Of a stretch of DNA of 64,000 bases, positions 18,126-51,813 are shown piece by piece. The notes beneath the pieces were generated by a model. That model was not told the DNA's origin, did no database searches, and saw nothing but the letters and a program-made list of their open reading frames with translations. The DNA lies in IMG/VR virus record IMGVR_UViG_3300046694_000619. The stretch is one strand, 5' to 3'. Position 1 is the stretch's first letter; each line of letters begins with the position of its first letter. The position numbers and the translations under genes are program-made. This DNA comes from a virus. Its lineage: Duplodnaviria; Caudoviricetes.

Positions 18126-18420
18126 CGTGTTTGACAGGGTGTGCGTGCGGTCGCGACGCGAGGAATTCAAGGAAGTCGCAGGTTTAGGCTTCCCGGTCAC
18201 AAGTATATCGTAAAAAGGCGTGTTGTCGAGTTTGAGCCTATCAAGGTCGGGCAGCCAGGGAGTGAGTTGTGCTGCCACGCACTTGCTACCTTCAGGTAAT
18301 GGCGTCAGGTGCACGCTCACATCGGGCGGGCTGGTGAGCCTTAGTCGTTTGTTGTGTTTTACGTAAAATGTGCTATAATGCTAGTTAATTATTCAATTTC
18401 TGCCTTCCGAGGAAACGCCC

Positions 18421-19677
18421 ATGTTCTTCCACATCATGCTGGAAATCTTCGAACTGCTGCCGGTGCTGCTCATCATCTGCACAGCAGTCAACTTCCTGCT
18501 GCGCCTGCTCACGAAGGCCGCGCAACCGATGCGCGACTACACCTACCAGCCGAAGGTCAGCGTGCTCGTGCCGGTCTACAACGAGGGCGAGAACATTCTC
18601 AACACACTCAACAGCATCATCAACGCCGACTGGCCTCGCGACAAGCTGGAAATCATCGCGTATGACGACTTCAGCAAGGACGAGTCGATGATGTACGTGC
18701 AGCAGATTGCGGACGCGCATCCGGGCCTGGTTCGGGTCGGCCGCAACCCGGTGAACTCGGGTAAGCACCTGACCGTGCTGAACGCATCCAAGCACGCTAC
18801 GGGCGAGATTTTCATCGTCATCGACAGCGACTGCATCTTCCACAAGGACGTTATCAAGGAACTCGTGGCGTGCTTCGGCGATGAACGTGTCGGTGCGGTC
18901 GGCGGCGCGGTGGGCATCACCAACGTGAACGACAACATCTACACGATGGCGCAGGCCGTGACCTACTTCCGCAGCTTCCAGTTGGGCAAGCTCACGCAGA
19001 TTCTACAGGGTGGCGTCAGCTGCATCAGCGGGTGCCTGTTCTCGGTGCGCGCCTCCGTCTATCGCGACATCGAGGACGACATCAAGAATCTGAACTTCCT
19101 GGGTGTCAAGGTCCGCGCCGGCGAAGACCGGTACATGACGCACACCATCATGCTGCGCGGCTGGCGTACCCTCATTAACCCGAACGCTATCTGCTGGACG
19201 TCGGTGCCCAACAAGTTCGACGTGCTGTTCAAGCAGCAACTTCGCTGGTCGCGCTCGGCGCTGCGTGATGCGATGTGGACGCTGGTGACGCTGCGCAAGA
19301 ACTTCGAAGTCGTGGGTGTCAACCGGACCCTGACGTGGCTCATGCCTTATGTGCTGGCCATCCTCGTGACTTTCTTCGCACTGAGCTGCGTAAAGGTCTA
19401 TGGCCCCGGCGTGTTCTGGAAGGGCGCCTGCTTCGGCCTGATTTACGGTGCCGTGACCTCCATCATGTCCGCGTTGGCCTACAACTACTATGCGCCGCGC
19501 CTGATGCCGGGCTCGAAGAAAATCAGTACCGTACTGGCGGTGGGTCTGTTCCAGGCCTGGGGCCTGATTTCTCTGATGCTGCACTTCATGGCACTGTTTT
19601 CGTTCGACCAGGACGCATGGGGCACGCGGGAGAAGGTAGCGACGCCCGAGCAGGAAGGTGCCACTTCTGCCAATTGA
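18421..19677 (+). CDS. processive GT2 glycosyltransferase, NodC/class I hyaluronan-synthase-like
   Basis: PVYNE, DDFSKD, GKH, DSD, CISGC, GEDRYMT, QQLRWSRS, plus N- and C-terminal TM helices. Confidence 0.9.
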   Translation: MFFHIMLEIFELLPVLLIICTAVNFLLRLLTKAAQPMRDYTYQPKVSVLVPVYNEGENILNTLNSIINADWPRDKLEIIAYDDFSKDESMMYVQQIADAHPGLVRVGRNPVNSGKHLTVLNASKHATGEIFIVIDSDCIFHKDVIKELVACFGDERVGAVGGAVGITNVNDNIYTMAQAVTYFRSFQLGKLTQILQGGVSCISGCLFSVRASVYRDIEDDIKNLNFLGVKVRAGEDRYMTHTIMLRGWRTLINPNAICWTSVPNKFDVLFKQQLRWSRSALRDAMWTLVTLRKNFEVVGVNRTLTWLMPYVLAILVTFFALSCVKVYGPGVFWKGACFGLIYGAVTSIMSALAYNYYAPRLMPGSKKISTVLAVGLFQAWGLISLMLHFMALFSFDQDAWGTREKVATPEQEGATSAN

Positions 19678-24227: not shown

Positions 24228-24260
24228 CTATACTTAGATGTAAAATGCGATTAACGATTA
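24228..24260 (+). promoter_or_regulatory. -10 element plus candidate NrtR operator (prs-like gene)
   Basis: ctatacttagatgtaaaatgcgattaacgatta; contains the reverse complement of TAATCGTTAATCGCA. Confidence 0.6.
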
Positions 24261-24286
24261 ACAATCAACCAACAAAAACCATCACC

Positions 24287-25165
24287 ATGAACCACATTGC
24301 ACTGCACTCGTTCACCGCCGAAGGCGACATGACCAGCTACCCGGACATCCAGTTCATGTCGTTCCCGGGTGGCGAGCGCCACGCCCGTCTGCCGGTTGAC
24401 GACATCCTGCTCGCAGGCCCGGTGTCCTTCTGGAGCATCGAAGCGCGCGTATACACGCCGGCTGACATCATGGACCTGATGCTCGTCACGGACGCACTGC
24501 GCCGGGTGATTCCCGCAGGCAGCATACTGAAGCTCGTGATGCCCTACGTGCCGTACGCCCGCCAGGACCGTGTGGCCGTGGACGGCGAGCCGCTCTCGAT
24601 TGCGGTCTTCTGCAACCTCATCAATGCCCTGGCCTTCGACCAGGTCGAAATCTGGGACCCGCACAGCGACGTGACGCCCGCGCTCATCAAGAATGTGCGC
24701 ATCCGTCCGACGCGCGACCTGATGTTTGCTGCGTTCGGCATGAAGGGCGGGGCAAGCCTGCTGCGCGACTGCGCGTTCGTCGCCCCCGACGCTGGCGCCC
24801 GCAAGCGTGTCTCGACGCTCGCCAAGATGTTCAACACCGACGTTGTGTTCGCCGACAAGAAGCGCGACCCGGTAACGGGCAAGCTCTCGGGCGCGCAGGT
24901 ACAGGGCGATGTGCCCGCGAAGCCGCTGCTCGTGGTCGATGACATCTGTGACGGTGGCGGCACCTTCATTGAACTGGCCCGCGTGCTGCGCGAAAAGACG
25001 GACCAGCCGCTGTACCTCTATGTCACGCACGGCCTGTTCACGAAAGGCCTGGAGCCGCTCAAGGCCGCCTACGCTGGCGTGTTCTCGGCGAACTGCCGTG
25101 ATGCAGAAATCGCGAGCCAGCTCGGGATTTTCGAATCGGCTGAACTCGAAGGCGTGAGTTCCTGA
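24287..25165 (+). CDS. ribose-phosphate pyrophosphokinase family protein (Prs-like, candidate ADPR-PP synthetase)
   Basis: FPGGE, PYVPYARQDR, DPHS, APDAGA, VVDDICDGGGTF, YVTHGLF; start revised to MNHIAL. Confidence 0.92.
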   Translation: MNHIALHSFTAEGDMTSYPDIQFMSFPGGERHARLPVDDILLAGPVSFWSIEARVYTPADIMDLMLVTDALRRVIPAGSILKLVMPYVPYARQDRVAVDGEPLSIAVFCNLINALAFDQVEIWDPHSDVTPALIKNVRIRPTRDLMFAAFGMKGGASLLRDCAFVAPDAGARKRVSTLAKMFNTDVVFADKKRDPVTGKLSGAQVQGDVPAKPLLVVDDICDGGGTFIELARVLREKTDQPLYLYVTHGLFTKGLEPLKAAYAGVFSANCRDAEIASQLGIFESAELEGVSS

Positions 25166-25236
25166 CCAAAAGTCTTTGACAAAATCGCATAGTATGAAAT
25201 ACGATTTTCGACTTCACAAGTCACCCAATCATTAGC

Positions 25237-26163
25237 ATGCCCGAATCGGTGTTGTCCGGCCCCAGCTACGTTTACGCACTCTGTGACCCGCGCAAGCCAC
25301 TTGATGACGCGAGAGGGTTGCCTTACGAGCCGTTCTACATTGGGAAAGGTTCTGAGCGGCGAGTGTTTGCTCACTTTCGGAACGGAGTCTACCAGAACAC
25401 ATACAACCCTCATAAGACGAGGAAGTTGAAGCGAATCCGAGCAGAGTGTGGTCGAGATGCCTTGATAGTGTTTATTCGTGACGGCCTGACCGACGCTGCA
25501 GCATATGAACTGGAGGCTGTCCTCGTCGGCCAATGGGGCCGTCTGAACGATGGTACTGGCGTATTAACAAACGTGACAGCGGGCGGCACTGTTTTGAGCG
25601 AAAAGGCGTACGCGCCCGAAGTTATTCGAAAAGTTGCAGCGAGCCGGAAGGGAATACCGCTGACTGAGCAGCATAAGGAAAGCATCCGACGAAGGGCTAT
25701 CGGTCGTCGGCCTTCTGATGAGACGAAAGAGAAGATTCGCATGGCGCGCCTGACGCGCGCGGTACCGGTCTCCGACGAGACGCGGGAGAAATTGCGAGTG
25801 GTGCATTCGGGCAAGCCTAAGCCTGTGGGCTTCGGGCAACGAGTGAGTGAAGCAAAGCAAGGCAAGCCCAGGCCCGACAACGTAGGCAGGCTGAGTAAGC
25901 CGGTTTCGATGTATGGTGTCGATGGTTTGCTCCTTGCGACATATCCGAGTGCTCGCATTGCGTGGGATGTTACTGGCGTCGACTACAAGGCTATCAGTGC
26001 TTGTTGTACCGGAGCTCAAAAAACCTGCTGGAAGGCCGACAAGTTGGTCACCTTCAGATTCGGGGCGGCGGACGAAATTGAACAATTGAAATTGGCCAGC
26101 CGGGGTCGCCATGTTTGCCGGGCTCCAAGAATTGTCTCAAAGAAGAGGCTGGAGCCACTTTAG
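25237..26163 (+). CDS. free-standing GIY-YIG homing-endonuclease-like protein with NUMOD3-like repeats
   Basis: YVYALCDPR...FYIGKG..R; SDETKEKIR and SDETREKLR repeats; NUMOD1-like C-terminus; AT-richer codons. Confidence 0.8.
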   Translation: MPESVLSGPSYVYALCDPRKPLDDARGLPYEPFYIGKGSERRVFAHFRNGVYQNTYNPHKTRKLKRIRAECGRDALIVFIRDGLTDAAAYELEAVLVGQWGRLNDGTGVLTNVTAGGTVLSEKAYAPEVIRKVAASRKGIPLTEQHKESIRRRAIGRRPSDETKEKIRMARLTRAVPVSDETREKLRVVHSGKPKPVGFGQRVSEAKQGKPRPDNVGRLSKPVSMYGVDGLLLATYPSARIAWDVTGVDYKAISACCTGAQKTCWKADKLVTFRFGAADEIEQLKLASRGRHVCRAPRIVSKKRLEPL

Positions 26164-26277
26164 AGATTGAGCCCTAGCCGCCAAGGCTAGCTGTCCCGCA
26201 TAACGCACGGCCGCAACCTTCGAATTGCGACGCAGAAGTCAAATGCACAAAACTGTTTGACATAGAAAGCTTTTGTG

Positions 26278-26304
26278 CTATACTTAATCGTAAGTCGCAA
26301 CTAA
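26278..26304 (+). promoter_or_regulatory. sigma70-like promoter -10 plus candidate NrtR operator (nadV-like gene)
   Basis: TTGACA upstream, TGTGCTATACT, then taatcgtaagtcgcaactaa. Confidence 0.7.
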
Positions 26305-26342
26305 CACCTAATACCGCGTAAAACTCAAGAAGGATTTTAACC

Positions 26343-28064
26343 ATGAATGCACCGCACGCACCCGCCGCAATCCCCGCCGCCCTCAAGAACGGCACCATCC
26401 CCATGAATCTCGCGGATTTTTATAAAACCGGGCACCCTGGCATGTACCCGACGGAAACGAAGACGCTGGTGGCAACGTTCACGCCGCGCGGCGACAAGTA
26501 CGCGCCGGTGCGCAACTCGCCGTTCTACGACAAAAAGGTGGTGTGGCACGGCCTGAAGGGCTTCATCAAGGAGTTCCTCATCGACAAGTTCAACGCCGAC
26601 TTCTTCACGATGTCGAAGGAGCAGGCGGTCCGCAAGTTCAAGCGCCGCGTGGACTCGGCCCTGGGCGCGGGCAAGGTCGCGATGACGCAAATCGGAAAGC
26701 TGCACGACCTGGGCTATCTGCCGCTGGAAATCCGTTCGCTGCCCGAGGGCAGTCGTGTGTATATCAAAGTTCCTCCGGTGGTCTTTATCAATACAAATGA
26801 TGCCTTTGCTTGGGTCTCGACCTACTTCGAAACCCTTTTCAGCACGGAAATGTGGAAGCCTTCGACGGTCGCCACCATCGCATTCGAATTCCGCAAAATT
26901 CTCACGTATTTCGCCAAGCTGACGGGCTCGCCGCTGGACTTCGTCAGCTGGCAGGGCCACGACTTCTCGATGCGCGGCATGAGCGGCGTACACGACGCAG
27001 CACGCAGCGGCAGCGGCCACCTGCTTTCGTTCTGGGGCACGGATACCATTCCGGCCATCGACTACATCGAAGACTACTACGGCGCCGACTCAGACGCGGA
27101 GCTCATCGGCGGCTCGGTGCCGGCGACCGAACACAGCGTCATGACGCTGCGCATCCTGCTCGTCACGCAACGCCTGCAGCGCGACCCGGCGAATGCGGGT
27201 ATGGACGGAAAGGCACTGCGCAAGATGGCCGAATTTGAGGTCGTCCGTGAACTCATCGCCGACCTGGTCCCCACGGGCATCATCAGCATCGTAGCGGACA
27301 GCTTCGACTACTGGAACGTCATCACGGACATCCTGCCGCGCCTGAAGGACGTTATCAAGGCACGCAAGCCGGACGAGCTGGGCAATGCCAAGGTCGTCGC
27401 GCGTCCGGATAGTGGCGACCCGGTCAAGATTCTGACGGGCTACCTCAACAAGGAACTGGTCTGCGATGCTGCGGGTACGCCGGTGTTCAGCGAAGGCCGC
27501 TACACGGCGCTGGACGGCACGCGTATCACCGAAGCAGAGCGCAAGGGTTCGGTGGCATGCCTGTGGGATTCGTTCGGCGGCACCATCACGAGCACCGGCC
27601 ACAAGCTGCTCGACCCGCACATCGGCCTCATCTACGGCGACTCGATTACGCTGGACCGCGCAATCGCCATCCTGTCGCGCCTGGCTGCCAATGGTTTCGC
27701 CTCGGGCAACGTCGTGTTCGGCATCGGCTCATTTACGTACCAGATGCTGTCGCGGGACTCGTTCGCCTGGGCAATGAAGGCGCAATACGCAGAAGTCGGC
27801 GACGAAGTTGTCGAAATCTACAAGGACCCGGCAACGGACGACGGCACCAAGAAGTCGGCGGTCGGTCTGCTGCGTGTCGAGAAGGAAGGTGATGACTTCG
27901 TGCTCTACGACCGTCAGACGCGCGAACAGTTCGACCAGGGCGAACTGAAGCCGGTCTTCCGCAACAGCCAGCTGCTCGTCGATGAAAAGTGGGCTGTCAT
28001 CCGCGAACGTCTGCTGTCCTCGTGGGTCTGCCCGGAACCGGGTACCGTCCAGTTCGCAGTCTGA
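26343..28064 (+). CDS. nadV: nicotinamide phosphoribosyltransferase family protein (NadV/NAMPT-like, candidate Namat)
   Basis: DFYKTGH, HDFSMRG, GTDT, VPATEHSV, SIVADSFD, RPDSGDP, IYGDSIT, FGIGS, KDPATD. Confidence 0.93.
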   Translation: MNAPHAPAAIPAALKNGTIPMNLADFYKTGHPGMYPTETKTLVATFTPRGDKYAPVRNSPFYDKKVVWHGLKGFIKEFLIDKFNADFFTMSKEQAVRKFKRRVDSALGAGKVAMTQIGKLHDLGYLPLEIRSLPEGSRVYIKVPPVVFINTNDAFAWVSTYFETLFSTEMWKPSTVATIAFEFRKILTYFAKLTGSPLDFVSWQGHDFSMRGMSGVHDAARSGSGHLLSFWGTDTIPAIDYIEDYYGADSDAELIGGSVPATEHSVMTLRILLVTQRLQRDPANAGMDGKALRKMAEFEVVRELIADLVPTGIISIVADSFDYWNVITDILPRLKDVIKARKPDELGNAKVVARPDSGDPVKILTGYLNKELVCDAAGTPVFSEGRYTALDGTRITEAERKGSVACLWDSFGGTITSTGHKLLDPHIGLIYGDSITLDRAIAILSRLAANGFASGNVVFGIGSFTYQMLSRDSFAWAMKAQYAEVGDEVVEIYKDPATDDGTKKSAVGLLRVEKEGDDFVLYDRQTREQFDQGELKPVFRNSQLLVDEKWAVIRERLLSSWVCPEPGTVQFAV

Positions 28065-28070
28065 GCGGCG

Positions 28071-28097
28071 AGCCCCCGCCCAGCGGGGGTTTTCTTT
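28071..28097 (+). terminator. intrinsic terminator
   Basis: cccccgc-cca-gcggggg-ttttcttt. Confidence 0.75.
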
Positions 28098-28127
28098 GCG
28101 CAATAACTCACGGCACGAGCCATGTCG

Positions 28128-28152
28128 CAATCGTTAATCGCAATTTACGACA
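28128..28152 (+). promoter_or_regulatory. two overlapping candidate NrtR operators (autoregulation)
   Basis: caatcgttaatcgcaatttacgaca upstream of nrtR. Confidence 0.6.
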
Positions 28153-28192
28153 AAGTATGATATACTGTGTAAACAGTATTCGAGAGGTCTCC

Positions 28193-28867
28193 ATGCAATA
28201 CGAACGCCCAGATTTGTTTGTCGACATCGCCTTGCTGACGATGATTGACGGTCGCCTGAAGGTCGCGTTGTATCCGCGCGAGAAGGCGCCGGACGCGGGT
28301 ATGTGGTGTCTGGTGGGCGGGCAAATCCACACGAACGAAGACGCGGACATCCGCGCGGCCGCGCTGCGCACACTGCGCGCCAAGCTTGATTTCGAGCCGC
28401 GATACATCGAGCAGGTGTCCACGGAAGGCAATGCGCTGCGTGACCCGCGCCGCTGGTCTGCCACCGTCGTGCACCTGGCGGTGAATTCGCCAGACGTGCT
28501 GTGGGACCTGGTTGACCGCCGCGGCATGCAGCTCTTTGACCTCGAGGACGACGGGGCTCACCTGCCCGAGAACATGGCGCTGGACCACCGCAAGCTCCTC
28601 ATGATGGCGGTCGAGCGGCTGCGCAACAAGGCCGCGTATTCGACGATTGTGGCGCACTTCCTGCCCGAAGAATTCTCGCTGCCGGATTTGTTGTCCGTTT
28701 ACGAGTCGGTGCGGCAGAAGCCGTGTAACGCGGCGAATTTCCGGACGAAAATCATGAAGGAAGACGTGCTCGAAGAATCGCCGACCACGTTGTTCAGCGG
28801 AGGACGGCCGGCTACGGGCTACCGGCTCAAGGAAAACATCGCCTATTTCAACCGCGAACTGTACTGA
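28193..28867 (+). CDS. nrtR: NrtR-family regulator (degenerate Nudix + winged HTH)
   Basis: Nudix box lacking Glu residues (AALRTLRAK), RDPR, DH, FSLPDL..VYE, NFR, GRPA; adjacent to NAD genes. Confidence 0.88.
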   Translation: MQYERPDLFVDIALLTMIDGRLKVALYPREKAPDAGMWCLVGGQIHTNEDADIRAAALRTLRAKLDFEPRYIEQVSTEGNALRDPRRWSATVVHLAVNSPDVLWDLVDRRGMQLFDLEDDGAHLPENMALDHRKLLMMAVERLRNKAAYSTIVAHFLPEEFSLPDLLSVYESVRQKPCNAANFRTKIMKEDVLEESPTTLFSGGRPATGYRLKENIAYFNRELY

Positions 28868-40501: not shown

Positions 40502-40882
40502 TCACGCGGTCACGATTTCGTGACCTTGGCAGAGCGCTTCCTTGCCGTCCTCATACACGTACACGTACCACTCCGGCCAGTCGGGCGCGGTGACAACCTT
40601 GAGCCCCGGGCCAAGGTCTTCGCCGGCTTCCGCGCGCGCAATGAGGCTAGGCAGCGTGCGCATCTTTGCGCTGAACAGCGTCAGAAAGTGGAGCACGCCG
40701 TCCCGCTCGACCGCCCAGTCAAAGGAGTCGAGCAGCGTGCGTCCAGGCACGGCCATTCCGTCGAACTCGGAAGCGGGCAGGCCTTCTGCATCAAAAAGCT
40801 CAGGATTTGATTCCCAAAGCGCCTCGAGCACCGGGCGGTGCAGACGAAACGCATAGCTCGACGCGTTTATCAGAACTTTCAT
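40502..40882 (-). CDS. hypothetical protein
   Basis: Start revised to MKVLIN with AAGGAAG RBS. Confidence 0.6.
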   Translation of the reverse strand: MKVLINASSYAFRLHRPVLEALWESNPELFDAEGLPASEFDGMAVPGRTLLDSFDWAVERDGVLHFLTLFSAKMRTLPSLIARAEAGEDLGPGLKVVTAPDWPEWYVYVYEDGKEALCQGHEIVTA

Positions 40883-40899
40883 TGAACTTCCTTTCTTGT

Positions 40900-42150
40900 T
40901 CAGGCCGCGACGGCAACAGGCCTCACCGACGATTTGCGACAAGGCACAATCGTGTCGCGTGTTGGTCCCCACGAGCAAAACGCAACGGGCAACACCCGGT
41001 GGCTGGCCATGAAGACCAGTTCGTCCGGCGAGACTACGTGCGTTTCGGCATCCAGTCGCACGCGCGCCGCCGCGCCAACCTGGTCCAGACATGTCACAGC
41101 CGTCTGTGCGGTGATGTCGATGCGCGCGCCGAACGCTTCGGCTAGGTCAGACCCGATGGCAACTGCAAGCTGGTCCAGGTCCAGGTCGGCGAAGCGCAGG
41201 GACCCTTGGTACTCGTTCGGTTGATTCGTGAGGTCGACAACGCCTTCATAGGGCCGACCAGGCAACTCGTTTGCCAGCGGCCCGGCACCATGCCGCGTTA
41301 GGTACGCGCGGGTCACGTAGGTGACATCCAAGGCCTCGATGCCGGCTTCGCTTGCTACGTCGAGAACGTTGCGAAGCCCCGTGTTCGACCGGGTCACATA
41401 GGGGAATGCACCCTGATGCTGGTCGAGCAGCAGCCCCTGCGCGCCTTCGAACACGACATTGTCCGAGAGCAGGATAGGCGCCGCGGCACCCGACAACAAC
41501 GTGACATCACCCAGGAATTCCTGCGCGGCCTCGATAAAGGCGTCCACCAGCACGTCCGTTGTGCACAGCTTATGATGCTTGCCAAAATCCGGCAGCCCCA
41601 GTTCCTTGATGCGGACGGGCAGGTGGAAATCGCGAATCTCGATGAGTTTTGCGCGCAACGCGTCAACGTCTTGCAGGTCACCAGCCGTCAGCGCAAACGT
41701 GCCGGCTTCCATGCGCCCGATGGTCTCGCCAAAACCCATGCCGCAGCTGCCGTGTCGCTTCGCACCGCGAAAATCCTCGACGAGCTGGTTCACCAGCATG
41801 TCGAAGAAGGTGGTCACTGGCGCGCGCTCGTCCACGTAGAGCGTCGTAAGCTTGCCGAGGAGAGGCAGGAGTTTCGCGCGCTCCTTGAGATAAAGCATGG
41901 GATTGACCGCAAAGTGCCGCGACAGGTACGTCTTCGCGCCCGCGAACGTGCCGGCGCCGAAATGGCTGAAAGCATGTCGCGTGCCGTCCGGCGTGGTGAC
42001 GGTGTGACTCGCCTGGCAGCCACCGTTGAAACGCACGACGAGGCTGTTATCGCTCTGTGACGCGAAGTAATCGGTCATGAGACCCTTTCCTTCATCCCCG
42101 TAGTTCGCGCCGATGACCACTTTTGCCGAGCGCTTGCGAAGCTGTGTCAT
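40900..42150 (-). CDS. adenylosuccinate-synthetase-like protein (divergent PurA family)
   Basis: GANYGDEGKG, RFNGGCQASHT, VFEGAQGLLLD, PYVTRSN, RAYLTRHGAGP, TCLD. Confidence 0.9.
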   Translation of the reverse strand: MTQLRKRSAKVVIGANYGDEGKGLMTDYFASQSDNSLVVRFNGGCQASHTVTTPDGTRHAFSHFGAGTFAGAKTYLSRHFAVNPMLYLKERAKLLPLLGKLTTLYVDERAPVTTFFDMLVNQLVEDFRGAKRHGSCGMGFGETIGRMEAGTFALTAGDLQDVDALRAKLIEIRDFHLPVRIKELGLPDFGKHHKLCTTDVLVDAFIEAAQEFLGDVTLLSGAAAPILLSDNVVFEGAQGLLLDQHQGAFPYVTRSNTGLRNVLDVASEAGIEALDVTYVTRAYLTRHGAGPLANELPGRPYEGVVDLTNQPNEYQGSLRFADLDLDQLAVAIGSDLAEAFGARIDITAQTAVTCLDQVGAAARVRLDAETHVVSPDELVFMASHRVLPVAFCSWGPTRDTIVPCRKSSVRPVAVAA

Positions 42151-42163
42151 GCTGGGTCTCCAG

Positions 42164-42454
42164 TTACAGAATTTCGCAGCCGTATTTCTGGCGGAACTGG
42201 ATAGCCAGCTCCTGAAATTCGGGCATATTGCCCATATTGGTTTTCACTTCAGCGAGTAACCCGGGCCGACCGTACGGAAGGTCGGCGTGCAACTCGAAGC
42301 AGAATCCTTCTGCCGGTGTTGGGTATTCGCTGTAAAGCTCGGCTGAAATGCCCTTGTCCAGCGCACCTCGCACCTGGCGAATTATGTTGGCCGCCCACGG
42401 CTTCCACTCTTCGGCGTCGCGTGGCCCAGCTCCCACCTTGTCATTCGTGTCCAT
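42164..42454 (-). CDS. hypothetical protein
   Basis: Start revised to MDTNDK. Confidence 0.55.
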   Translation of the reverse strand: MDTNDKVGAGPRDAEEWKPWAANIIRQVRGALDKGISAELYSEYPTPAEGFCFELHADLPYGRPGLLAEVKTNMGNMPEFQELAIQFRQKYGCEIL

Positions 42455-42483
42455 CACTCGCTCCACTTCGAATTTTGGTGCGC

Positions 42484-42954
42484 TTAATCTGCGTAAGCGA
42501 TGATTCCGACTTCCCAAAATGCCTCGACGCCGAAATCCTTCTTCAACATGTCGACGAATTCACCGTATTCGCGCTGGGCCTTTTCGAGCATCGCCGTGCC
42601 GTCAAGGGAAGAAAAGAGCACCGGCTTGAACCCGTCTTCCGTGTCCTGCTCGAGCGTGAGGCCGTGCTCGTTGTGGTTCGGCAGCCAGATGTCGCCCTTC
42701 GGATGATTCTTTCCATATTCCGGGCAGTGCATGAAGTCCTCCCACGGGCCGGTGAGCTTGTGGATGGGAAACGGCTTCACCACTTCCGTGGGCACGTCCC
42801 GCTCAAGCACGGTACCGCCGCAGTTTCCGCAAAACTTCGCGGGCTTGCTGACCGCCGGCGCGTTGCAGTTGTTCGAGCAGCTGCGCTCAGACTTGGTCCC
42901 CTTCACGGGTGAAGGGGGAATGACCAGGTATGGGCCGATGAAAAACGACGTCAT
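42484..42954 (-). CDS. Zn-ribbon hypothetical protein
   Basis: CSNNC and FCGNCG. Confidence 0.65.
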   Translation of the reverse strand: MTSFFIGPYLVIPPSPVKGTKSERSCSNNCNAPAVSKPAKFCGNCGGTVLERDVPTEVVKPFPIHKLTGPWEDFMHCPEYGKNHPKGDIWLPNHNEHGLTLEQDTEDGFKPVLFSSLDGTAMLEKAQREYGEFVDMLKKDFGVEAFWEVGIIAYAD

Positions 42955-42968
42955 AAAAATCCTGTTGA

Positions 42969-45242
42969 TTAAGCGAGGTAGTCAGCGATGAGCACTTCTG
43001 CGTCGTAGGCCGTGACCACTTTCTGGTCAGCCTTCACCGGCACGATGGCGGTCGGCAGCTTGCTTGTGAAAACGATGTCCGCTTCCAGCGCGGTGGCCAC
43101 CCGCTCGCCACGCGCGTTGACGTGGTCAGCGAGCAGGGCGCCTAGCGTCGGTCGAACCGGATTGACGATGCCGCGCGCCATCTGCGTCGTCAGGATGGTC
43201 GCCGTCTCCACAGCATTGAAGCCGCTGCAGCGTGCCGGCAGCACCAGGTCCGCCCATACGAACTGACGTCGCGCGATGTCCACATAGCCAACCAGGATGC
43301 GCTCGCCTGCCGCCGTCAGGTCGACCTTCTGGCGCACGGTGCGTGCGTCATAGATGGCGCCGCTCTGTTCGTCGACGCGCGACATCCAGCCCAGATACGC
43401 TTCGGGCATATCGCCGAAGTTCTGCTTGGTGTACGAAAATGCGACCAGCGCGATGTACGCGGCGTCAACAGGGAGTTTGCGGAAGTCGATGTCGATGAAC
43501 TCGCACGCGCCCTCCGGCGCCGACGTAATGTCGCCGCTGTGCGTCATGCCTTCCGCGCGCAACTGCGTGAAGCTGCAGTGCGTCACATAGTTGAAGCTTT
43601 CGTCGAGCACCGAGCAGGACAGGTCCAGGTCGGTACGGCCGATGGAGTAGGGCTCGCCACTCTTATCGAGGCCTTGCTCATTCCACCACAGGAACGCGCG
43701 CATGATGGAATCGGGGCCCAGGTCGATACGCGAGCCGCGACCTACCGTCAGCAGCGACTTCTGCGCGGTACGCTGCGCAAACGGAACGCTGATGCCGTCC
43801 AGTGCAGGGTCGATATACACCTTGCCCATCGCCGGCAGCTTGGCGAAGCGCGCCGCCAGCACGTCGGACACCGTTTTGACGACGAATTCGTTGGCGCTCT
43901 CGGTCAGCCGCGGCGAACCGTTCTGCGGCACCCACATGCGGGCAGCGCCGCCCTTCGGCGAGAACGCGCGCACACCATCCTGGTCCACCGCCATGCGGTG
44001 ACGCAGTTGCACGAGGACCGGCGTCGAGACCTTGTCGGCCACAGTTGCGAAGGCCTTGAGCACCGCTTCCTTGTTCGCGCCCGTCGCCTTGCGTACGGTT
44101 TCATGCAGCTTGCGAGCGAACACACCCGGACGCTGCACGAGAAGGTCGATGGCAGCCAGGGTGTTGCGCGATGCAAGGCGCGATTCCACCGTACCGGCCC
44201 AGCTCACGGGCATGTCGTTCTTGCGCAGCGCCGTGAAGTGCTCGTAGGCACGCTTGAAGCGGGCTTGATACTCGCCCGGATGCAGCGCTTCCCCCAGGCG
44301 TACCCATTGCTCGCGTCGCTGGAACATCTCCGAGCGCACCGACTCAGCGCTGAGGCTGTCGAGGAGGCCCAGCAACAGGCGGCGCAGGCCACGAGAGACC
44401 TTGCCAAAGCGCGGCGGCTTGGACAGCGTCAGGTCTGCATCCTTGAGGTTGGCCGCGCCGACAGCGGCGGCCAGGCGCAGCACGTCGGTTGGTGTCTGGA
44501 AGAAGCGCGCGAACTCAGCGGCTTCGAACGTCGCCGGCGTGTGCGTCAGCAGCCAGCCGCCGACCAGCGCGCGGTGTTCTTTTTGCGGGATGGTTGCCTG
44601 TTCCTTGAGCATTTCGAGCAGGCGGCCAGGATAGACTTCGCTGAAATACGAGAGCAGCTCGAGCGTCACTTCCTTGTTGGCCACCGACATCGAGGCATTG
44701 CCGTTGATAAGGCGCAGCAACTGGTCATAGACGGCCGTGCGCGGTGCAAGCGCCAGGGTGGTCGGCTTCATGTGCTCGAGCATCTTGAGCGCCGGTCGCT
44801 TTGACGCCGTGTACCGAGGCAGCACACGCACCCCCATCCAGTCGCCACGATAGTGCGCCCAGGCGTTAGAGAGCAATTCCGCGTCGGAAGCTTCGAGCAC
44901 CTGTTCCGGAAAATCCGGGTACATCGGGGAATACACGCGATGCGCGCCCAGAGCGTGGCTCAGGATGTGTACGAGGTTGGTGTGGACGTGAACGAGGTCG
45001 ACTTCGGGCATCCACGACAGCGTCAGGATAGCGTCCTGGCCGTAGACGAAGCCGAGATACTCGAGAGTCAGCTCGCTGTGAAGAGCGCGGTCCATGCTGG
45101 GACCGGGATTGCCGAGTGCGCTTTCGCGCTGCGAAGCAGCGTCAACGGCGGGCAGTGCCAGCTTGCCGTTGCGAACGAGAGCCGCGAGAATGTTGAATTC
45201 ACGGGTGTTAACTCGAAATCCTGCGTCAGCGAGCGTGAGCAT
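42969..45242 (-). CDS. large helical protein with C-terminal TerD-like domain
   Basis: RPGVFARKL helical region; RTDLDLS...HSGDITSAPEGACEFIDID TerD-like motif; start revised to MLTLAD with GAGGA RBS. Confidence 0.75.
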   Translation of the reverse strand: MLTLADAGFRVNTREFNILAALVRNGKLALPAVDAASQRESALGNPGPSMDRALHSELTLEYLGFVYGQDAILTLSWMPEVDLVHVHTNLVHILSHALGAHRVYSPMYPDFPEQVLEASDAELLSNAWAHYRGDWMGVRVLPRYTASKRPALKMLEHMKPTTLALAPRTAVYDQLLRLINGNASMSVANKEVTLELLSYFSEVYPGRLLEMLKEQATIPQKEHRALVGGWLLTHTPATFEAAEFARFFQTPTDVLRLAAAVGAANLKDADLTLSKPPRFGKVSRGLRRLLLGLLDSLSAESVRSEMFQRREQWVRLGEALHPGEYQARFKRAYEHFTALRKNDMPVSWAGTVESRLASRNTLAAIDLLVQRPGVFARKLHETVRKATGANKEAVLKAFATVADKVSTPVLVQLRHRMAVDQDGVRAFSPKGGAARMWVPQNGSPRLTESANEFVVKTVSDVLAARFAKLPAMGKVYIDPALDGISVPFAQRTAQKSLLTVGRGSRIDLGPDSIMRAFLWWNEQGLDKSGEPYSIGRTDLDLSCSVLDESFNYVTHCSFTQLRAEGMTHSGDITSAPEGACEFIDIDFRKLPVDAAYIALVAFSYTKQNFGDMPEAYLGWMSRVDEQSGAIYDARTVRQKVDLTAAGERILVGYVDIARRQFVWADLVLPARCSGFNAVETATILTTQMARGIVNPVRPTLGALLADHVNARGERVATALEADIVFTSKLPTAIVPVKADQKVVTAYDAEVLIADYLA

Positions 45243-45254
45243 GTATGTCCTCGG

Positions 45255-45445
45255 ATAGCGTATAAATAACGAACAGGCTACCCGCAGGAAAGCAATACGG
45301 GATGCCGTCTGGCATCCCGTATCACCACTTCTGGAGCAGGAGAGCAGCGCCGCTAGTTTCCAATGTGAGTTGAGTAGAAGGAAGCCGCGCAATAGCCTGC
45401 AAAACCTGTCAGCTGCCGAATACTTTCGTTCAACAACCGACTTGA
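45255..45445 (-). ncRNA. candidate structured 5' leader RNA of the TerD-like gene
   Basis: About 200-nt untranslated leader with a 12-bp hairpin (45295-45322) and an enclosing inverted repeat CAGGCTA/TAGCCTG. Confidence 0.5.
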
Positions 45446-45451
45446 GAGCAC

Positions 45452-45480
45452 AGTATATACCGATAACGCGCTCGCGTCAA
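45452..45480 (-). promoter_or_regulatory. sigma70 promoter
   Basis: TTGACG-17 nt-TATACT on the minus strand. Confidence 0.75.
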
Positions 45481-45498
45481 CCGCGATTTTAGTATATC

Positions 45499-46404
45499 TC
45501 AGAATCGCGTCAATGCCGTTCCTGCGGCGCGTCCCGGCTGCAGCGCATTCAGTCCGCGTGCGACGACCATCGACGTGCTGCCCGACCACGACTTCACCGT
45601 GGCGTCGACACTGGTGCCTTCGATAACCTGAATGGTCGACACGATGAGCTCAGCCATCTTCGTGTGGTCCGACAGCGGCAGTGCGCGCTCGCCGAGCAGT
45701 GCCTTCCAGTTCGCCTTGACTGACGAATCGCACGAGTTGCTTTCTTCGACGAGCAGATGGAAGACGTGATAGCTGCGGCTGGCCATGGTCAGCAGCTCTT
45801 CCGAAGTCAGGTCGCGCTCGATGTCGTCACCAAACACACGCTGGACCTGCGCGCGAGTGAGCACGTTGTGCGGATTCTCGTCGCCGACCGTGAAAAGATA
45901 GCCCTTCTTCTTGCGCTTTTCGAAACAGTCGATGGACGTATGACGCGCGGCGAAGTACCACGGCAGGTGGTAGCTCTCGCCGCCGTTGCCCCCGCCATGG
46001 CCTTCCAGCCAGATTTGCGACAGCTGCGTAGCGATGCGGATGTCGGCCTCGAACTGCGTCACCTGCAGCGGCGCCTTGTCCGAGTACGCGTCACCTACAC
46101 CCATGCACGCGATATGCGGGTCGGCGACCGGCTTGCGCGCAATCAGTTCTTCGACGAGGACGCCCATACCCGTTCTCACCAGGACGTCCGCGAGTTTGCC
46201 CATTGAACCCGTTACGTCGCCAGCGACGATGATGGCAGTCGAATTCGGATTGGCCGCTGAGTCGCGCGATTCACGCATCGCGACACCGTGCGGATTGAGG
46301 TCCGGGTGCATGTGGTTTTGGCTGAACACCTGTGCGGTCGACTTCGTGCTTGTGCTCGACGAGAACGAATCCCAGTCGGTGGAACTCCAGTTGCTTGAAC
46401 CCAT
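45499..46404 (-). CDS. von Willebrand factor A (vWA) domain protein
   Basis: MIDAS DVTGSM, GGGNGGESY, FTVGDE. Confidence 0.85.
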   Translation of the reverse strand: MGSSNWSSTDWDSFSSSTSTKSTAQVFSQNHMHPDLNPHGVAMRESRDSAANPNSTAIIVAGDVTGSMGKLADVLVRTGMGVLVEELIARKPVADPHIACMGVGDAYSDKAPLQVTQFEADIRIATQLSQIWLEGHGGGNGGESYHLPWYFAARHTSIDCFEKRKKKGYLFTVGDENPHNVLTRAQVQRVFGDDIERDLTSEELLTMASRSYHVFHLLVEESNSCDSSVKANWKALLGERALPLSDHTKMAELIVSTIQVIEGTSVDATVKSWSGSTSMVVARGLNALQPGRAAGTALTRF

Positions 46405-46452
46405 GATTTACTCCTGTGCGTTGTGCGGTTAGTGCGTTGTTTTGCTGTTTGT

Positions 46453-46878
46453 TTAAGCTTCCGTCTTCCGGGATGTATCGCCAGCGAGCCGGCGCAGCGA
46501 CTGCTCGAAGTGACAGAGCCACTTGAATTTGTCGGACACCCACGAAAAGCTTTGGTTGGCGTCGCTCTGCGCCCGGTTAATCCATGACCCGTACTCAGTC
46601 GTGCCGGGTTGCGGCAACTGCAGCGGGATGTGCTGTGCGGCGCTCCAGCACCCGCGCATTGAATACGCAGAGAACGAGGCGCGCTCGTATCGCTTGCCGT
46701 ATTCGCCCGTCATGTAGGCGTCGAAGTCGGCGGCGGCCGGTTCATCCTTCGGCGCCAACGCCGTGTTCACGATGCGCGAGATGCGGTCACGCAGCTGCTG
46801 TGTGTCGCGGTACTGAACCGCCGTGTCGCGCAACTCGTTCACGAGCGCGGTGATTTCGTGGTCTTTGAGGTCTTTCAC
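46453..46878 (-). CDS. hypothetical protein
   Basis: 141 aa, GTGA overlap with the upstream gene. Confidence 0.55.
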   Translation of the reverse strand: MKDLKDHEITALVNELRDTAVQYRDTQQLRDRISRIVNTALAPKDEPAAADFDAYMTGEYGKRYERASFSAYSMRGCWSAAQHIPLQLPQPGTTEYGSWINRAQSDANQSFSWVSDKFKWLCHFEQSLRRLAGDTSRKTEA

Positions 46879-47945
46879 AGCGCAATTCCTTGTCGCGGGT
46901 CGTACAGCCTGTCATGGGACAGGTCCATCGGGACGAACTTGCGCGGGCCGAACGCCTCGATGAGAACGCGCGACTGCCAGTCCTTGTAAGTGGCCACCGC
47001 GCTCTGATGCGTGCTCAGCTGAAGCCAGTCGACCAGGGCGGCCGGAACAGACGCGTCCTTGGCCAGCCGAACACCGGTTGAGTCGCCGAGCAGCTCACGC
47101 CCGAGCGCCTGAATCATTTCCATGTCCGTGCGGGTGTCGCCGACCTTCTTCTGGAGCACGGCTGGCGGCGCGCACAGCATCATTCGTTGCGAGGCCGCCT
47201 TCATCGGAGCGCCCAGCGGCGTGGCAAACCACCAGCCACCAAAGAGGTGAGCGGTGTGCTCCTCCGGCGAAATGAAGACCGTGTCCGGGCCGATAGCGTT
47301 GTGCGAGACCTTGCCTTGAATCTCGAGGTAGCAGGCGATGTTCAGCAAGCGGCTGAGGACCCACGCGACATGCGCGGCAGGCATCTTTCCCTTGTAGAAC
47401 TCGAGCACGTCCTGAAGGAGCATCTCCTTGGCCGTTTTCTTGAGGACCAGCATGGCGCCGGTCGCCGTTTCGACCTTCTTCACCACTTCCGGGAAGTAGC
47501 GCGAGAACTCCTTGCGCATCGGGTCGTTGGCGTAGGACAGGCGCGCGATGCTGCGTTGCGCGTCGTCGAGCAGGTCCAGGTTGTCGGTGGAGATGTCGAA
47601 CGCCACTACGGTGCGGCCGACGTACATCGTTCCAACCTCGAGCGCCACCTTGCGTGAGAAGCGCAGCTCAAACTGCGTTCCGTCCGTGCCGCGGATGGCG
47701 AGCAGTCCCGGTGTCTCCCACGTGCCTTCGGCGGCCTTGCGCTTGGCCGCTTTGTTCAGCTTCTTGAGCCGGTCGAACACGTCCCATCCGCGTGGACCGG
47801 AGCCGTGGTCAGGATGCCACCTCATGAAAAGCTTGCGAGCTTCCTTCTCCGCCGCCGCCGCGCTCGAAAACAGACGCTCGGGCGCATCTTCAGGGATGGC
47901 CAGGATTTCGTCAGCAGTGAGGGCGGTTTGGTCGGCTTCGGTCAT
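46875..47945 (-). CDS. J-domain (HPD) fused to a degenerate protein-kinase-like domain
   Basis: KLFMRWHPDHG; HVAWVLSRLL..ACYL, HNAIGPDTVFI (catalytic-loop-like), LFGGW in place of DFG. Confidence 0.75.
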   Translation of the reverse strand: MTEADQTALTADEILAIPEDAPERLFSSAAAAEKEARKLFMRWHPDHGSGPRGWDVFDRLKKLNKAAKRKAAEGTWETPGLLAIRGTDGTQFELRFSRKVALEVGTMYVGRTVVAFDISTDNLDLLDDAQRSIARLSYANDPMRKEFSRYFPEVVKKVETATGAMLVLKKTAKEMLLQDVLEFYKGKMPAAHVAWVLSRLLNIACYLEIQGKVSHNAIGPDTVFISPEEHTAHLFGGWWFATPLGAPMKAASQRMMLCAPPAVLQKKVGDTRTDMEMIQALGRELLGDSTGVRLAKDASVPAALVDWLQLSTHQSAVATYKDWQSRVLIEAFGPRKFVPMDLSHDRLYDPRQGIAL

Positions 47946-47958
47946 GTCCAGTTAGTTC

Positions 47959-47985
47959 TTAGTTGCGATTTACGAATAAGTATAG
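47959..47985 (-). promoter_or_regulatory. -10 element plus candidate NrtR operator (J-kinase/vWA operon)
   Basis: Minus strand ctatacttattcgtaaatcgcaactaa, 25/27 identical to 26278-26304. Confidence 0.7.
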
Positions 47986-48105
47986 GTGAGCCATTGGGTG
48001 GAATGCAAGACCTTTCGTTCCTCCGGAATACCGGATGTCAAATCGAGCGCATGGTTGGCCAAATACGTAAATAACAGTATACTATATAACGATGGAGAGA
48101 AGCGA

Positions 48106-48606
48106 ATGTTTGAACCAATGGCGGCCGCGACTCGCGCGATTCAGTTGGCGCGCGCCGGCACACCCCTATATTTCGAAGATGGACCAGTCGGAGACATCGA
48201 ACGCGATGCGCTCGCCGAAGGTCTGCCGCTTTGGCTCGAGGCCAAGGCAGGGCATCTGTATCTCGCTGCAAATGCTTCGTGGCCCGGCCTGTTCAAACTC
48301 GGATGCACCCGTCGGAGCATTGCGTCACGCATGCGTAGCTTGAGCGGCGCCGGAGTTCCGACACCATGGGTGGCGGCACATACCTGGACTGTGCACGACG
48401 CCCATGGGCTGGAAGCGCTGGTGCATCGGGAGTGCGAGCAGTGGCGCGTCGAAAAGGAACTGTTTCATGCGCCGGTGACAACTCTAATTGCGACTGTTGA
48501 TTCAGTTGTCGCTCGAGAACGCGAAGCCCTCACAAAAGAGCTGTCGTTATACCTTCCTCAGAAATTCATGGGGAGCCTGCAGCCGCTTACGGATGAGCAA
48601 ATATAG
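48106..48606 (+). CDS. T5orf172-domain (GIY-YIG-like) protein
   Basis: GHLYLAAN..WPGLFKLGCT.R....RMRSL...GVPTPW...LEALVH. Confidence 0.8.
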   Translation: MFEPMAAATRAIQLARAGTPLYFEDGPVGDIERDALAEGLPLWLEAKAGHLYLAANASWPGLFKLGCTRRSIASRMRSLSGAGVPTPWVAAHTWTVHDAHGLEALVHRECEQWRVEKELFHAPVTTLIATVDSVVAREREALTKELSLYLPQKFMGSLQPLTDEQI

Positions 48607-50049: not shown

Positions 50050-51813
50050 ATGAACAATTTAAATTCGACCAACATGCACGCACTCACGCTTCAGGCGCAC
50101 TTTGATTACAGTTACGTGCCGCGCACGGGAGACAACGCTGAAGGCGCCGATGTCACGGTGGCCTTCGCGACGGACTTCAACACGGCCGGCGAAAAGCTCA
50201 CGAAGCGTAAAGCAGGACCTCGCTATATCGGTATTCCCTTCGGGATTGATGTTTCCGAGGCGGCGGCGCGGCTTGTGGCGTTCATTGTCGGACGCAATGG
50301 CAGCACGCTGAACGTGGCGGGCAACGGCATCTACACGCTCACGGAGCACGGTGTCAATCAGGAGCGGGCCAATGCGTGGGTGCACAGCGTTCTCGCGGCG
50401 GTATCGCGAGGCGTGAAGCTCACGCTCGTTCGCTCAGGCGGGCAGACGGGCATCGACCAGGCTGGCCTGGTGGCGGCCCTCGCGCTTGGCATTCCTGCAC
50501 TGGGCTACTACCCGGCGCGCTTTCGTCGACGCAACGCGCAAGGCACGGAAGTGACGGCTACAGCCGCCGCGATTCGTGCCGAGCTCGAGGTGCAGGCTGA
50601 CGCGCTGAAGAAGAGCAAAGGCTGGGACTTTCACCAGGACGGGTCGCTGCCGACCGAACTCGAGAAGCAGGTCTTCGTGTTCGGCTCTAACCTGGCCGGA
50701 CGTCACGGCAAGGGTGCTGCGGCTGTCGCCAAGGAGCAGTTTGGCGCGCAGCCGGGTGTTGGTCCGGGGCGTCAGGGTCAAAGCTACGGCATCCCCACAA
50801 AGGATGGTCGGCCGCTGCCGGGAATGGAGCGTCCATCGTTCAACGACCCGAAGCAGACCCTCTCCCTGGCTGCCATCAAGCCCTTCGTCGACGATTTCAT
50901 CGAGTATGCGAAAGCACATCCCGATGAGCAGTTCTTCGTCACGCGTGTCGGTTGCGGTCTGGCCGGCTACGAAGACAAGGAGGTCGCGCCGATGTTCGCC
51001 GCGGCACCTTCGAACTGCAGCTTTCCGGAAGACTGGAAGCCGTGGCTCTCGGAGGCTCAGGACGCGCCGAAGGTCGCGCAAGCCATCAACATCTGGAGCG
51101 GTGCTTCGGGGTTGGGCGGCGCGCTGACCAACATGTCGGAGCGGGCGCGGGAGAAGGGCGGCATCAAGCACTCGTATCCCGTGAAGGTCAATGGTGTGAC
51201 TTACCCTGATTCCGAGGCGGCCTATCAGGCGCTGAAGGCTCCGGGTGAGGACGATTACAACGACGGCCTGATGATTGACCTCATCGCGCTGAAGTTCGTC
51301 CAGAACACCAAGCTGTATGACCTCGTGACGAAAAACGGTGGTGTGGCATGGCTGGAAAAATGCAGTCATTTCACGCAGGCTAAATCGGAGCGGTTCCAGG
51401 CCTGGGAAGGTCAGGGACACGGGTCCCGGTTCATCCGGAACCTGATTCACGGCTACGTGAAGGCAAAGACCGGCCGCGGTCCCGTTACCCGGGTCGTGCA
51501 TGTGAAGGAGGCTCCGTTTGACGTCTATATTGGGCGCCAGATGGGTTCGGACTACCCGCACTCCCCGTGGCATAACCCGCACAAGGTCGACAGCTCTCGC
51601 TCGCGCAATACGGCCGTCGCAGACTTCGCCGAAGACTTTTCGGGCAACCAGGAGTTACAGGCTGACGTGTACCTGCTTAAGGGCAAAACCCTGGGCTGCT
51701 GGTGCAAGGACCGCTCTGATGTCAACCGGCTATGTCACGGCGATGTGCTTGCCGCGCGCGCAGACGGGCGAGAATGGGTCGCTCCGCAAGAAGCTCAAGG
51801 CTGTCTGTTCTGA
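50050..51813 (+). CDS. four-domain fusion: SLOG-like + Macro-like + NADAR-like + DUF4326
   Basis: LNVAGN/RSGGQTGIDQAGL; VFVFGSNLAGRHGKGAA...TRVGCGLAG; YPDSEAAYQA...KF; DVYIGR..WHNP...LKGKTLGCWC..CHGDVL. Confidence 0.75.
   Translation: MNNLNSTNMHALTLQAHFDYSYVPRTGDNAEGADVTVAFATDFNTAGEKLTKRKAGPRYIGIPFGIDVSEAAARLVAFIVGRNGSTLNVAGNGIYTLTEHGVNQERANAWVHSVLAAVSRGVKLTLVRSGGQTGIDQAGLVAALALGIPALGYYPARFRRRNAQGTEVTATAAAIRAELEVQADALKKSKGWDFHQDGSLPTELEKQVFVFGSNLAGRHGKGAAAVAKEQFGAQPGVGPGRQGQSYGIPTKDGRPLPGMERPSFNDPKQTLSLAAIKPFVDDFIEYAKAHPDEQFFVTRVGCGLAGYEDKEVAPMFAAAPSNCSFPEDWKPWLSEAQDAPKVAQAINIWSGASGLGGALTNMSERAREKGGIKHSYPVKVNGVTYPDSEAAYQALKAPGEDDYNDGLMIDLIALKFVQNTKLYDLVTKNGGVAWLEKCSHFTQAKSERFQAWEGQGHGSRFIRNLIHGYVKAKTGRGPVTRVVHVKEAPFDVYIGRQMGSDYPHSPWHNPHKVDSSRSRNTAVADFAEDFSGNQELQADVYLLKGKTLGCWCKDRSDVNRLCHGDVLAARADGREWVAPQEAQGCLF

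Follow-up and report, generated by a model that had tools for sequence, protein, structure and literature searches.

A 64,000-nucleotide stretch of Caudoviricetes DNA (IMG/VR record IMGVR_UViG_3300046694_000619; hereafter the window) was analysed with a focus on positions 40502-47945, where eight co-oriented open reading frames (ORFs), named A to H, fill the minus strand from 47945 down to 40502 with short gaps or overlaps between them (Table 1). The window belongs to a very large Burkholderia/Paraburkholderia replicon; the B. ubonensis, B. multivorans and Paraburkholderia contigs on which homologues of gene A were found measure 508-643 kb. Judged from its sequence, the segment is composite: genes A, C and G, coding for a J-domain pseudokinase, a vWA/MIDAS protein and a PurA-type ligase, form a conserved three-gene module, and a lineage-specific cassette lies between C and G. 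The explanation considered best, and held to be somewhat probable as a whole, is that of an NrtR-controlled A-C-G ligase module into which a cassette carrying gene D has been inserted. An earlier reading of the same DNA, made from its letters and without database searches (the sequence-only reading), had described eight co-oriented genes headed by an NrtR-like operator, among them an HPD J-domain fused to a kinase fold without the HRD and DFG aspartates, a MIDAS vWA protein and a PurA homologue. These features were all recovered, on the basis of motifs, AlphaFold2 and Foldseek for A, motif and fold matches for C, the Pfam match for G, and an exact motif match, enriched in the window, for the operator.

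When the eight proteins were compared with Pfam, a clear match was obtained for G only, in addition to a weak TerD match in D and a weak zinc-ribbon match in E. Matches to PHROGs were obtained for A (annotated as 'kinase'), B, C, D and G, so relatives of these five proteins are present in phages. PADLOC gave no match for any of the eight proteins, and no match to phages was found when the whole cluster was searched by blastn.

Table 1. Features of the analysed locus and the presumed regulator gene of the element.
Feature	Coordinates	Strand	Basis
A: J-domain + protein-kinase-fold pseudokinase (core), 356 aa	46875..47945	-	phrog_3043 'kinase'; fold and motif evidence
B: 141 aa, lineage-specific	46453..46878	-	N-terminal 40 residues match small phage families (phrog_20174, others)
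C: vWA/MIDAS protein of an unnamed family (core), 301 aa	45499..46404	-	phrog_2971, E = 1.9e-49
Internal promoter (TTGACG-17-TATACT) and conserved structured leader of D	45243..45480	-	promoter scan; three-way alignment
D: 757-aa helical + TerD-like protein, SCO0854/MXAN_6230 family, inserted cassette	42969..45242	-	NF041916 365 bits; phrog_33734, E = 9.7e-67
E: 156 aa, possible zinc ribbon, lineage-specific	42484..42954	-	Pfam DZR, E = 0.063
F: ~96-117 aa, lineage-specific, start uncertain	42164..42517	-	no family match
G: PurA-superfamily ligase with remodelled substrate pocket (core), 416 aa	40900..42150	-	PF00709, E = 5.9e-42; phrog_1211, E = 1.8e-58
H: ~126-aa ORF, overlap with the end of G	40502..40882	-	no family match, no relatives in searched loci
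NrtR-type operator between promoter and gene A	47959..47975	.	exact consensus match
Likely A promoter, TTGCAT-18-TATACT, including the element-wide CTATAC motif	47979..48008	-	read from the sequence; not called by the consensus promoter scan
nrtR gene of the element, presumed trans-acting regulator	27989..28867	+	NrtR_WHD, E = 7.8e-13, plus NUDIX

Homologues of A with 34-42% identity came from three sources, namely a Massilia chromosome, a scaffold from a metagenome and a Logan contig, and in each of them A was followed first by a gene for a 304-311-aa protein and then by a PurA-like gene; a divergent NrtR gene was located upstream of A in the Massilia chromosome and the metagenome scaffold, and none in the Logan contig. 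For a broader survey, one genome per GTDB species was sampled, which yielded 74 loci for tblastn searches and counting, 66 of them with enough downstream sequence to be informative. The order A-C-G was colinear in 65 of these 66 loci. Their hosts comprised Gamma-, Beta- and Alphaproteobacteria, Clostridia, Obscuribacterales, Geomonas and Kapaibacterium, including Competibacteraceae, Massilia, Clostridium, Ruminococcus and Lachnospiraceae. Homologues of B, D, E, F and H were detected in none of the 74 loci, and clustering of the flanking ORFs of all 74 revealed no further conserved partner, with no family occurring in more than 12 loci and the commonest ones being generic. In the phylum of Massilia sp. 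Leaf139 (G002), C was present in 2 of 300 sampled species, which indicates that the module is sparse and mobile. Taken as a genomic unit, A, C and G thus appear to be a self-contained, horizontally mobile module. It is uncharacterised in the literature that was searched, since these searches retrieved no description of the trio; none of the SCO0854 family, to which D is assigned below, was retrieved either. In Lachnospiraceae, a DUF4291 gene was observed between a co-oriented NrtR-like gene and A-C-G (L064, 9384-9953; also L066 and L081), possibly as a fourth gene of the module that is specific to this lineage.

Among phages, C matched 218 records, of which approximately 200 belong to cluster-C mycobacteriophages that hold all of A, C and G. 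In phage TinyTim, the three genes are adjacent (gp259-261) and correspond to a 'Ser/Thr kinase' with the HPD motif (gp259), to C (gp260) and to a 'PurA-like adenylosuccinate synthetase' (gp261). In jumbo phages similar to Vibrio phiKT1024 and Rhizobium TM30, C adjoins G and A is missing, with NADAR, NUDIX and phosphoribosyltransferase (PRTase) genes nearby. The genes upstream of C in these Vibrio and Rhizobium phages were considered as relatives of A and rejected, because hhalign comparison with the A family showed no relation. The occurrence of C-G without A points to C and G as the minimal unit and to A as a frequent third member.

The NrtR-type operator of gene A, TTAGTTGCGATTTACGA (47959-47975), lies between the TATACT -10 element and the start of A and matches the consensus TTAGTTGCNNTTTACGA with 0 mismatches, the consensus having been derived from nrtR/A intergenic regions of Massilia (Burkholderiales). 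Five sites of this type were counted in the window, compared with 0.71 expected and a maximum of 3 in any shuffle. Others are situated at 26288-26304, before a nadV-like (NAMPT-like) gene, and at 28131-28150, at the 5' end of nrtR, whose true start is probably downstream of 28150. The surrounding region (24245-28867) carries Prs-like, GIY-YIG-like, NAMPT-like (NAPRTase family) and nrtR genes and has the same type of operator as gene A. A weak box with three mismatches was also noted at 18348-18364 (+), about 60 nt upstream of a glycosyltransferase-like ORF at 18421, and may have arisen by chance. In related loci, clade-specific conserved palindromic boxes were found in the intergenic regions of nrtR and A, and nrtR was divergent from A at a distance of ≤500 bp in 39 of 63 loci. 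The association of a J-kinase, a vWA protein, a PurA-like protein and NrtR, put forward in the sequence-only reading, therefore holds in bacterial genomes and, for the trio, in mycobacteriophages.

As a shared and enriched NrtR-type motif the operator is considered real, and binding of NrtR to it is predicted. With an operator upstream of A and an nrtR gene in the same replicon, the arrangement has the hallmarks expected of an NrtR regulon. Since the box of A is common to the nadV and nrtR genes of the element, it appears reasonable to link gene A to the breakdown of NAD, as the sequence-only reading had proposed.

Three other explanations of the locus were weighed and judged weaker than that of an NrtR-controlled module with an inserted cassette. 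The one that survives best, although improbable, takes the trio as an anti-phage or anti-competitor defence: an imbalance of NAD/ADP-ribose would induce it, the ligase would make a toxic or signalling nucleotide or drain GTP and thereby abort infection, and phages would use it for superinfection exclusion. It accords with the self-contained and patchy nature of the module in the phylum of Massilia sp. Leaf139, its variable neighbourhoods, the T5orf172/PDC-S57-like gene next to A in the element family, and the combination of a vWA protein with a kinase, a pair that reportedly occurs in the TerY-P defence system as well. Against it, A, C and G had no PADLOC match, and they come without an attached nuclease, pore or NADase effector. 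The trio is fixed in ~200 lytic mycobacteriophages and elsewhere in phages resides among genes for NAD and nucleotide salvage, not exclusion, and salvage genes typically come under a metabolic repressor (Rodionov 2008, PMC2330246), as the trio appears to do.

The start of D, an ATG codon at 45242, is supported by homologues of 752 and 761 aa. The protein scored 365 bits against NCBIfam RING_SCO0854 (NF041916; cut-off 600) over residues 396-770 and 19.1 bits against Pfam TerD (cut-off 25.3); assignment to the SCO0854/MXAN_6230 family is thus indicated by its sequence, and the label 'TerD-like' is weak but plausible. Within the stretch of ~240 nt upstream of D, the promoter-like site is followed by a leader of ~190 nt, which is conserved in this and two other giant elements (74% mean column identity in a three-way alignment) and comprises a 16-bp hairpin, kept through compensatory changes, followed by ATTGCTTT. 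The leader had no match in Rfam and may be an attenuator or a riboswitch-like element. In one of the three elements it comes after an extra gene, which suggests that it travels with D and not with C. The sequence-only reading had announced a 757-aa TerD-like protein with an RNA leader and a Zn-ribbon protein; the length of D and its conserved structured leader stood, whereas the TerD score remained below the cut-off, and E has the pattern CxxxC...CxxC with no more than the marginal DZR match listed in Table 1.

All three giant elements carry D between C and G, with differing small genes around it, and as an insertion at this site D was found only in close relatives of the ~630 kb Burkholderia element. 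It is present in the related loci L086 and L087; in L088, whose A is 54% identical, D is absent and A-C-G has nothing inserted. Of B, residues 1-75 alone are conserved in L086, and the gene is absent from L087 and L088. Among these three loci, a homologue of E occurs only in L087 and one of F, which had no family match, only in L086; H had no homologue in them or in the 74 GTDB loci. D, E and F are therefore regarded as an apparent insertion between C and G, and the absence of D from L088 and the 74 loci, together with its own promoter and leader, shows the D cassette to be independent of A-C-G. In this element, G may now also be transcribed with D, which may loosen its control by NrtR. Homologues of D in phages stand alone, often among tRNA or nucleotide-metabolism genes; the best full-length match, MT835874, has unrelated neighbours (subtilase, DUF5052). 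Those of Ruegeria phage RpAliso (L003, 3900-6056) and Rhodococcus phage Weasels2 (L002, 6212-8290) lie within or alongside large arrays of tRNA genes, with tRNA nucleotidyltransferase or RtcB as the neighbouring gene. A split Ro60-like (TROVE + vWA) particle formed by D and C, with the leader as Y RNA, was considered and dropped, because D had no TROVE match and C belongs with G, not D.

These results bear on the proposal, made in the sequence-only reading, that all eight genes constitute one Ter-type conflict-response system, induced by NAD breakdown, that re-aminates inosine mono- or triphosphate (IMP/ITP) produced by defence deaminases such as RADAR. It can draw on the NrtR box upstream of A, the PurA catalytic residues kept in G, the retention of D between C and G in the three giant elements, and the tight packing or overlap of the genes. 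Even so, it is considered quite unlikely. B, D, E, F and H are missing from 74 of 74 loci and from L088, where A-C-G is uninterrupted; D has its own promoter and leader and is found alone in phages; and the Ter-type framing rests on this inserted gene, whose TerD match is below the Pfam threshold, with 0 of the 8 proteins recognised by PADLOC. A single operon of eight genes was put in question, rather than demonstrated, by the internal promoter before D. Re-amination of IMP/ITP by ordinary PurA chemistry appears less likely as well, since the residues by which E. coli PurA binds the IMP 5'-phosphate and L-aspartate are missing from G, and the hosts already possess a canonical PurA.

Of the core genes, C is the most conserved, with 40-60% identity to the window copy outside Burkholderia-type elements; its family comprised 867 cluster representatives at E <= 1e-30 and 89 Atlas clusters. 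The protein contains a complete MIDAS motif, D-V-T-G-S (D63-x-T-G-S67), and an invariant G174-D175 pair. No Pfam match, including none to the Pfam vWA domain, was obtained. Its structure model (predicted local distance difference test score (pLDDT) 90.1) matched the vWA domains of integrin beta-I, SpaC and NorD in Foldseek, and C is accordingly modelled as a vWA domain. A prediction of the complex of G and C, both supplied as alignments, scored 0.15 against a mark of 0.32, a result that counts neither for nor against binding.

Protein A contains the J-domain motif HPD (W43 H44 P45 D46), which hardly varies, if at all, among 19 homologues and is retained by the copies of Clostridium, Ruminococcus and mycobacteriophages, being conserved from phages of Actinobacteria to Firmicutes. 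Its AlphaFold2 model (pLDDT 90.9) had as best Foldseek/PDB matches the human DnaJ-PKA fusion (4wb7, 8fe5), covering the N-terminal helices, followed by ordinary protein kinases. In the window copy, the catalytic loop reads H-N-A-I-G-P-D-T as opposed to H-R-D-L-K-P-x-N in kinases, and G-G-W is found at the position of D-F-G, so that this copy lacks the Asp, Lys and Asn used in catalysis as well as the Asp of DFG. Throughout the family, the catalytic loop and DFG motif are degenerate and His alone is invariant. The J-domain profile PF00226 gave no match at E < 0.1 for the window copy and was recorded for several homologues. Based on the HPD motif kept throughout the family, the fold match to DnaJ-PKA and the degenerate catalytic loop and DFG motif, A is predicted to be a J-domain pseudokinase, with the fold of a kinase and without the residues of an active one.

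G scored 144.3 bits against PF00709 (gathering cut-off 27), with a match restricted to profile positions 1-288 of 416, and remained far below the cut-offs of the NCBIfam PurA equivalog models (TIGR00184, NF002223 and others: 123.7/402, 110.7/395.55, 90.9/700 and 90.5/445); across all four full-length models, scores of 78-124 bits stood against cut-offs of 368-700. It aligns to E. coli PurA (1ADE) across the first ~300 residues. The GDEGKG P-loop (equivalents of Asp13 and Lys16), His41 (xxSHT) and Gln224 (FEGAQG) are kept and invariant in 20 family members, and the TRxGxGP motif of PurA is also retained. Compared with 1ADE, Asn38 is changed to an invariant Gln, Thr128-Thr129 to a Ser-Cys pair that is invariant or nearly so, Arg131 to Met and Arg143 to Phe; the IMP 5'-phosphate ligands Asn38, Thr129 and Arg143 are thus read as Gln, Cys and Phe. 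The aspartate loop GATTGRxRR is replaced by the shorter TNxPNxYQGxLRF, with loss of the equivalents of Thr301, Arg303 and Arg305, and alignment of the family profile to 3HID places N-x-Y-Q-G-(gap)-x-L-R opposite G-A-T-T-G-R-S-R-R. As the replacement residues are invariant or nearly so across phyla, they argue for a new specificity of G and not for decay. The sequence indicates that G is a PurA-type enzyme with a new specificity, whose catalytic residues are kept and whose two substrate pockets have been rebuilt. Arg58-His59, His133-Ser-Cys136, Glu142-Thr143, Arg146 and the TNxPNxYQGxLR loop are expected to make up the new pocket. In 5 of 5 diverse host genomes, a full-length canonical PurA was found beside G (596-636 bits, versus 127-178 bits for G).

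That G is instead a second, stress-induced adenylosuccinate synthetase isozyme, boosting AMP/ATP for the re-synthesis of NAD with C and A as folding helpers only, would fit its PF00709 score, its intact P-loop, His and Gln and the shared box that groups it with the Prs-like and NAMPT-like genes, yet it is hardly probable given the low equivalog scores, the replacement of all six ligand equivalents (Asn38, Thr129, Arg143, Thr301, Arg303 and Arg305) by residues invariant or nearly so, and the unexpected situation that a folding helper, C, would be more conserved than its enzyme.

In the favoured explanation, the NrtR-controlled module with its inserted cassette, the ADP-ribose-sensing repressor NrtR would keep A-C-G off until NAD+ is broken down, whereupon ADP-ribose would relieve repression. 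By phosphoryl transfer, G would then activate a base-like substrate at a carbonyl oxygen and couple it to an amine. The substrate would not be plain IMP, and the amine donor would probably not be free L-aspartate. C would act as an obligate partner of G, as a subunit or an adaptor, and A as a dead kinase scaffold whose J domain might recruit DnaK, the Hsp70 of the host, for the assembly, activation or recycling of an A-C-G complex. The module may thereby serve the salvage or repair of nucleotides or of NAD/ADP-ribose under NAD-depletion stress, a role that would explain its carriage by bacteria, a giant Burkholderia element and large lytic phages. In an ancestor of the element family, D would have been inserted between C and G with its own promoter, its leader and variable small ORFs.

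Several observations weigh against parts of this scheme. There is no adjacent divergent nrtR in 24 of 63 loci. The promoter controlled by NrtR lies 3.4 kb upstream of G, and a second promoter as well as a terminator-like hairpin intervene, which makes control of G by NrtR uncertain in this element. A is dispensable in some phages, and a link to DnaK cannot therefore be essential to the reaction. The roles of the E. coli PurA residues as ligands of the IMP phosphate and L-aspartate are what we take them to be from published structures, and the guanine-specificity Asp (TKLD vs TCLDQ) was mapped by eye, as the HMMER alignments stop before it.

A more far-reaching version of the favoured explanation was also considered, although it can only be put forward tentatively and is more doubtful than not. 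According to it, the trio would be an undescribed route of nucleotide repair or of NAD/ADP-ribose reconstitution, a fourth kind beside NARP1-3, in which a ligase derived from PurA catalyses a phosphoryl-activated C-N coupling of a new kind and Hsp70, recruited by the pseudokinase, switches the complex; it would be used by bacteria, candidate phyla radiation (CPR) organisms, giant plasmids and ~200 phages against NAD-depleting attack. The substrate might then possibly be a nucleotide derived from NAD or ADP-ribose, another nucleotide different from IMP, or a protein amine, for instance the invariant N-terminus of the vWA partner.

Compared with known systems, G shares with PurA (EC 6.3.4.4; 1ADE and related structures) the fold family and the catalytic motifs described above, and differs from it in its sub-threshold equivalog scores, in the replaced IMP-phosphate ligands and L-aspartate loop, and in being a second paralogue beside canonical PurA that is always paired with a vWA protein. 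PurZ of the 2-aminoadenine pathway is likewise a phage enzyme of the PurA family with an altered substrate, and PHROG 1211, which includes G, is annotated as such. Unlike PurZ, G keeps the P-loop Asp and scored only 50.1 bits against the PurZ model NF038379 (cut-off 300); no DatZ, MazZ or DpoZ-type gene was found beside G in the examined loci, its companions being the vWA protein and the J-pseudokinase.

The divergent nrtR, the palindromic boxes, the same box at the Prs-like/NAMPT-like locus and the proximity of phage copies to NADAR, NUDIX and PRTase genes resemble NrtR regulons and NARP1-3. By the abstract of PMC13464706, no enzyme of NARP1, NARP2 or NARP3 corresponds to a ligase of the PurA type, to a vWA protein or to a J-protein, and NARP3 is described there as PnuC and NadR, which are unrelated to the module. 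The unexplained NrtR targets nrtX-nrtY (Rodionov 2008, PMC2330246) might be related to it. With the MoxR-vWA pairs (NorQ/NorD, CbbQ/CbbO) and the TerY-P triad, the module has in common a MIDAS vWA protein encoded beside a protein that couples to an ATP-driven machine, and the vWA domain of NorD was among the fold matches of C. It differs from them by the lack of an AAA+ MoxR partner, of a PP2C phosphatase and of a TerY-P match in PADLOC, and since its kinase is dead and bears a J domain, any motor would be Hsp70. As to Ter and TerY-P systems generally, the cluster contains no phosphatase, its kinase is dead, its TerD match is sub-threshold, and D lies outside the conserved module.

Further genes were noted in the neighbourhood of the cluster. 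Divergent from A, a gene at 47986-48606 (+) encodes a T5orf172/MUG113 protein (PADLOC PDC-S57, E = 1.9e-14), which keeps its position next to A in L086 and L087; its true start is probably near 48106, as the annotated GTG start would overlap the promoter of A. At 50050-51813 (+), a 587-aa protein with a circularly permuted YpsA SLOG domain and DUF4326 is encoded, and a related element has a conserved copy of it close to the module (L087, 7443-9254). In XacN1, a DUF4326 gene is positioned two genes downstream of the D homologue.

Bacterial immunity, like inter-bacterial toxins, uses depletion of NAD+ as a central weapon, and the three known phage counter-pathways are all recent finds. The A-C-G module appears to be wired to the same ADP-ribose sensor as these pathways, and its order is kept across several phyla and in ~200 well-studied, easily engineered mycobacteriophages. 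Its separation from the inserted cassette means that experiments can be aimed at three genes instead of eight. If the reaction catalysed by G were identified, the PurA superfamily would probably gain a new enzyme activity, and a first case of a bacterial J-domain pseudokinase working together with a vWA protein would be established.

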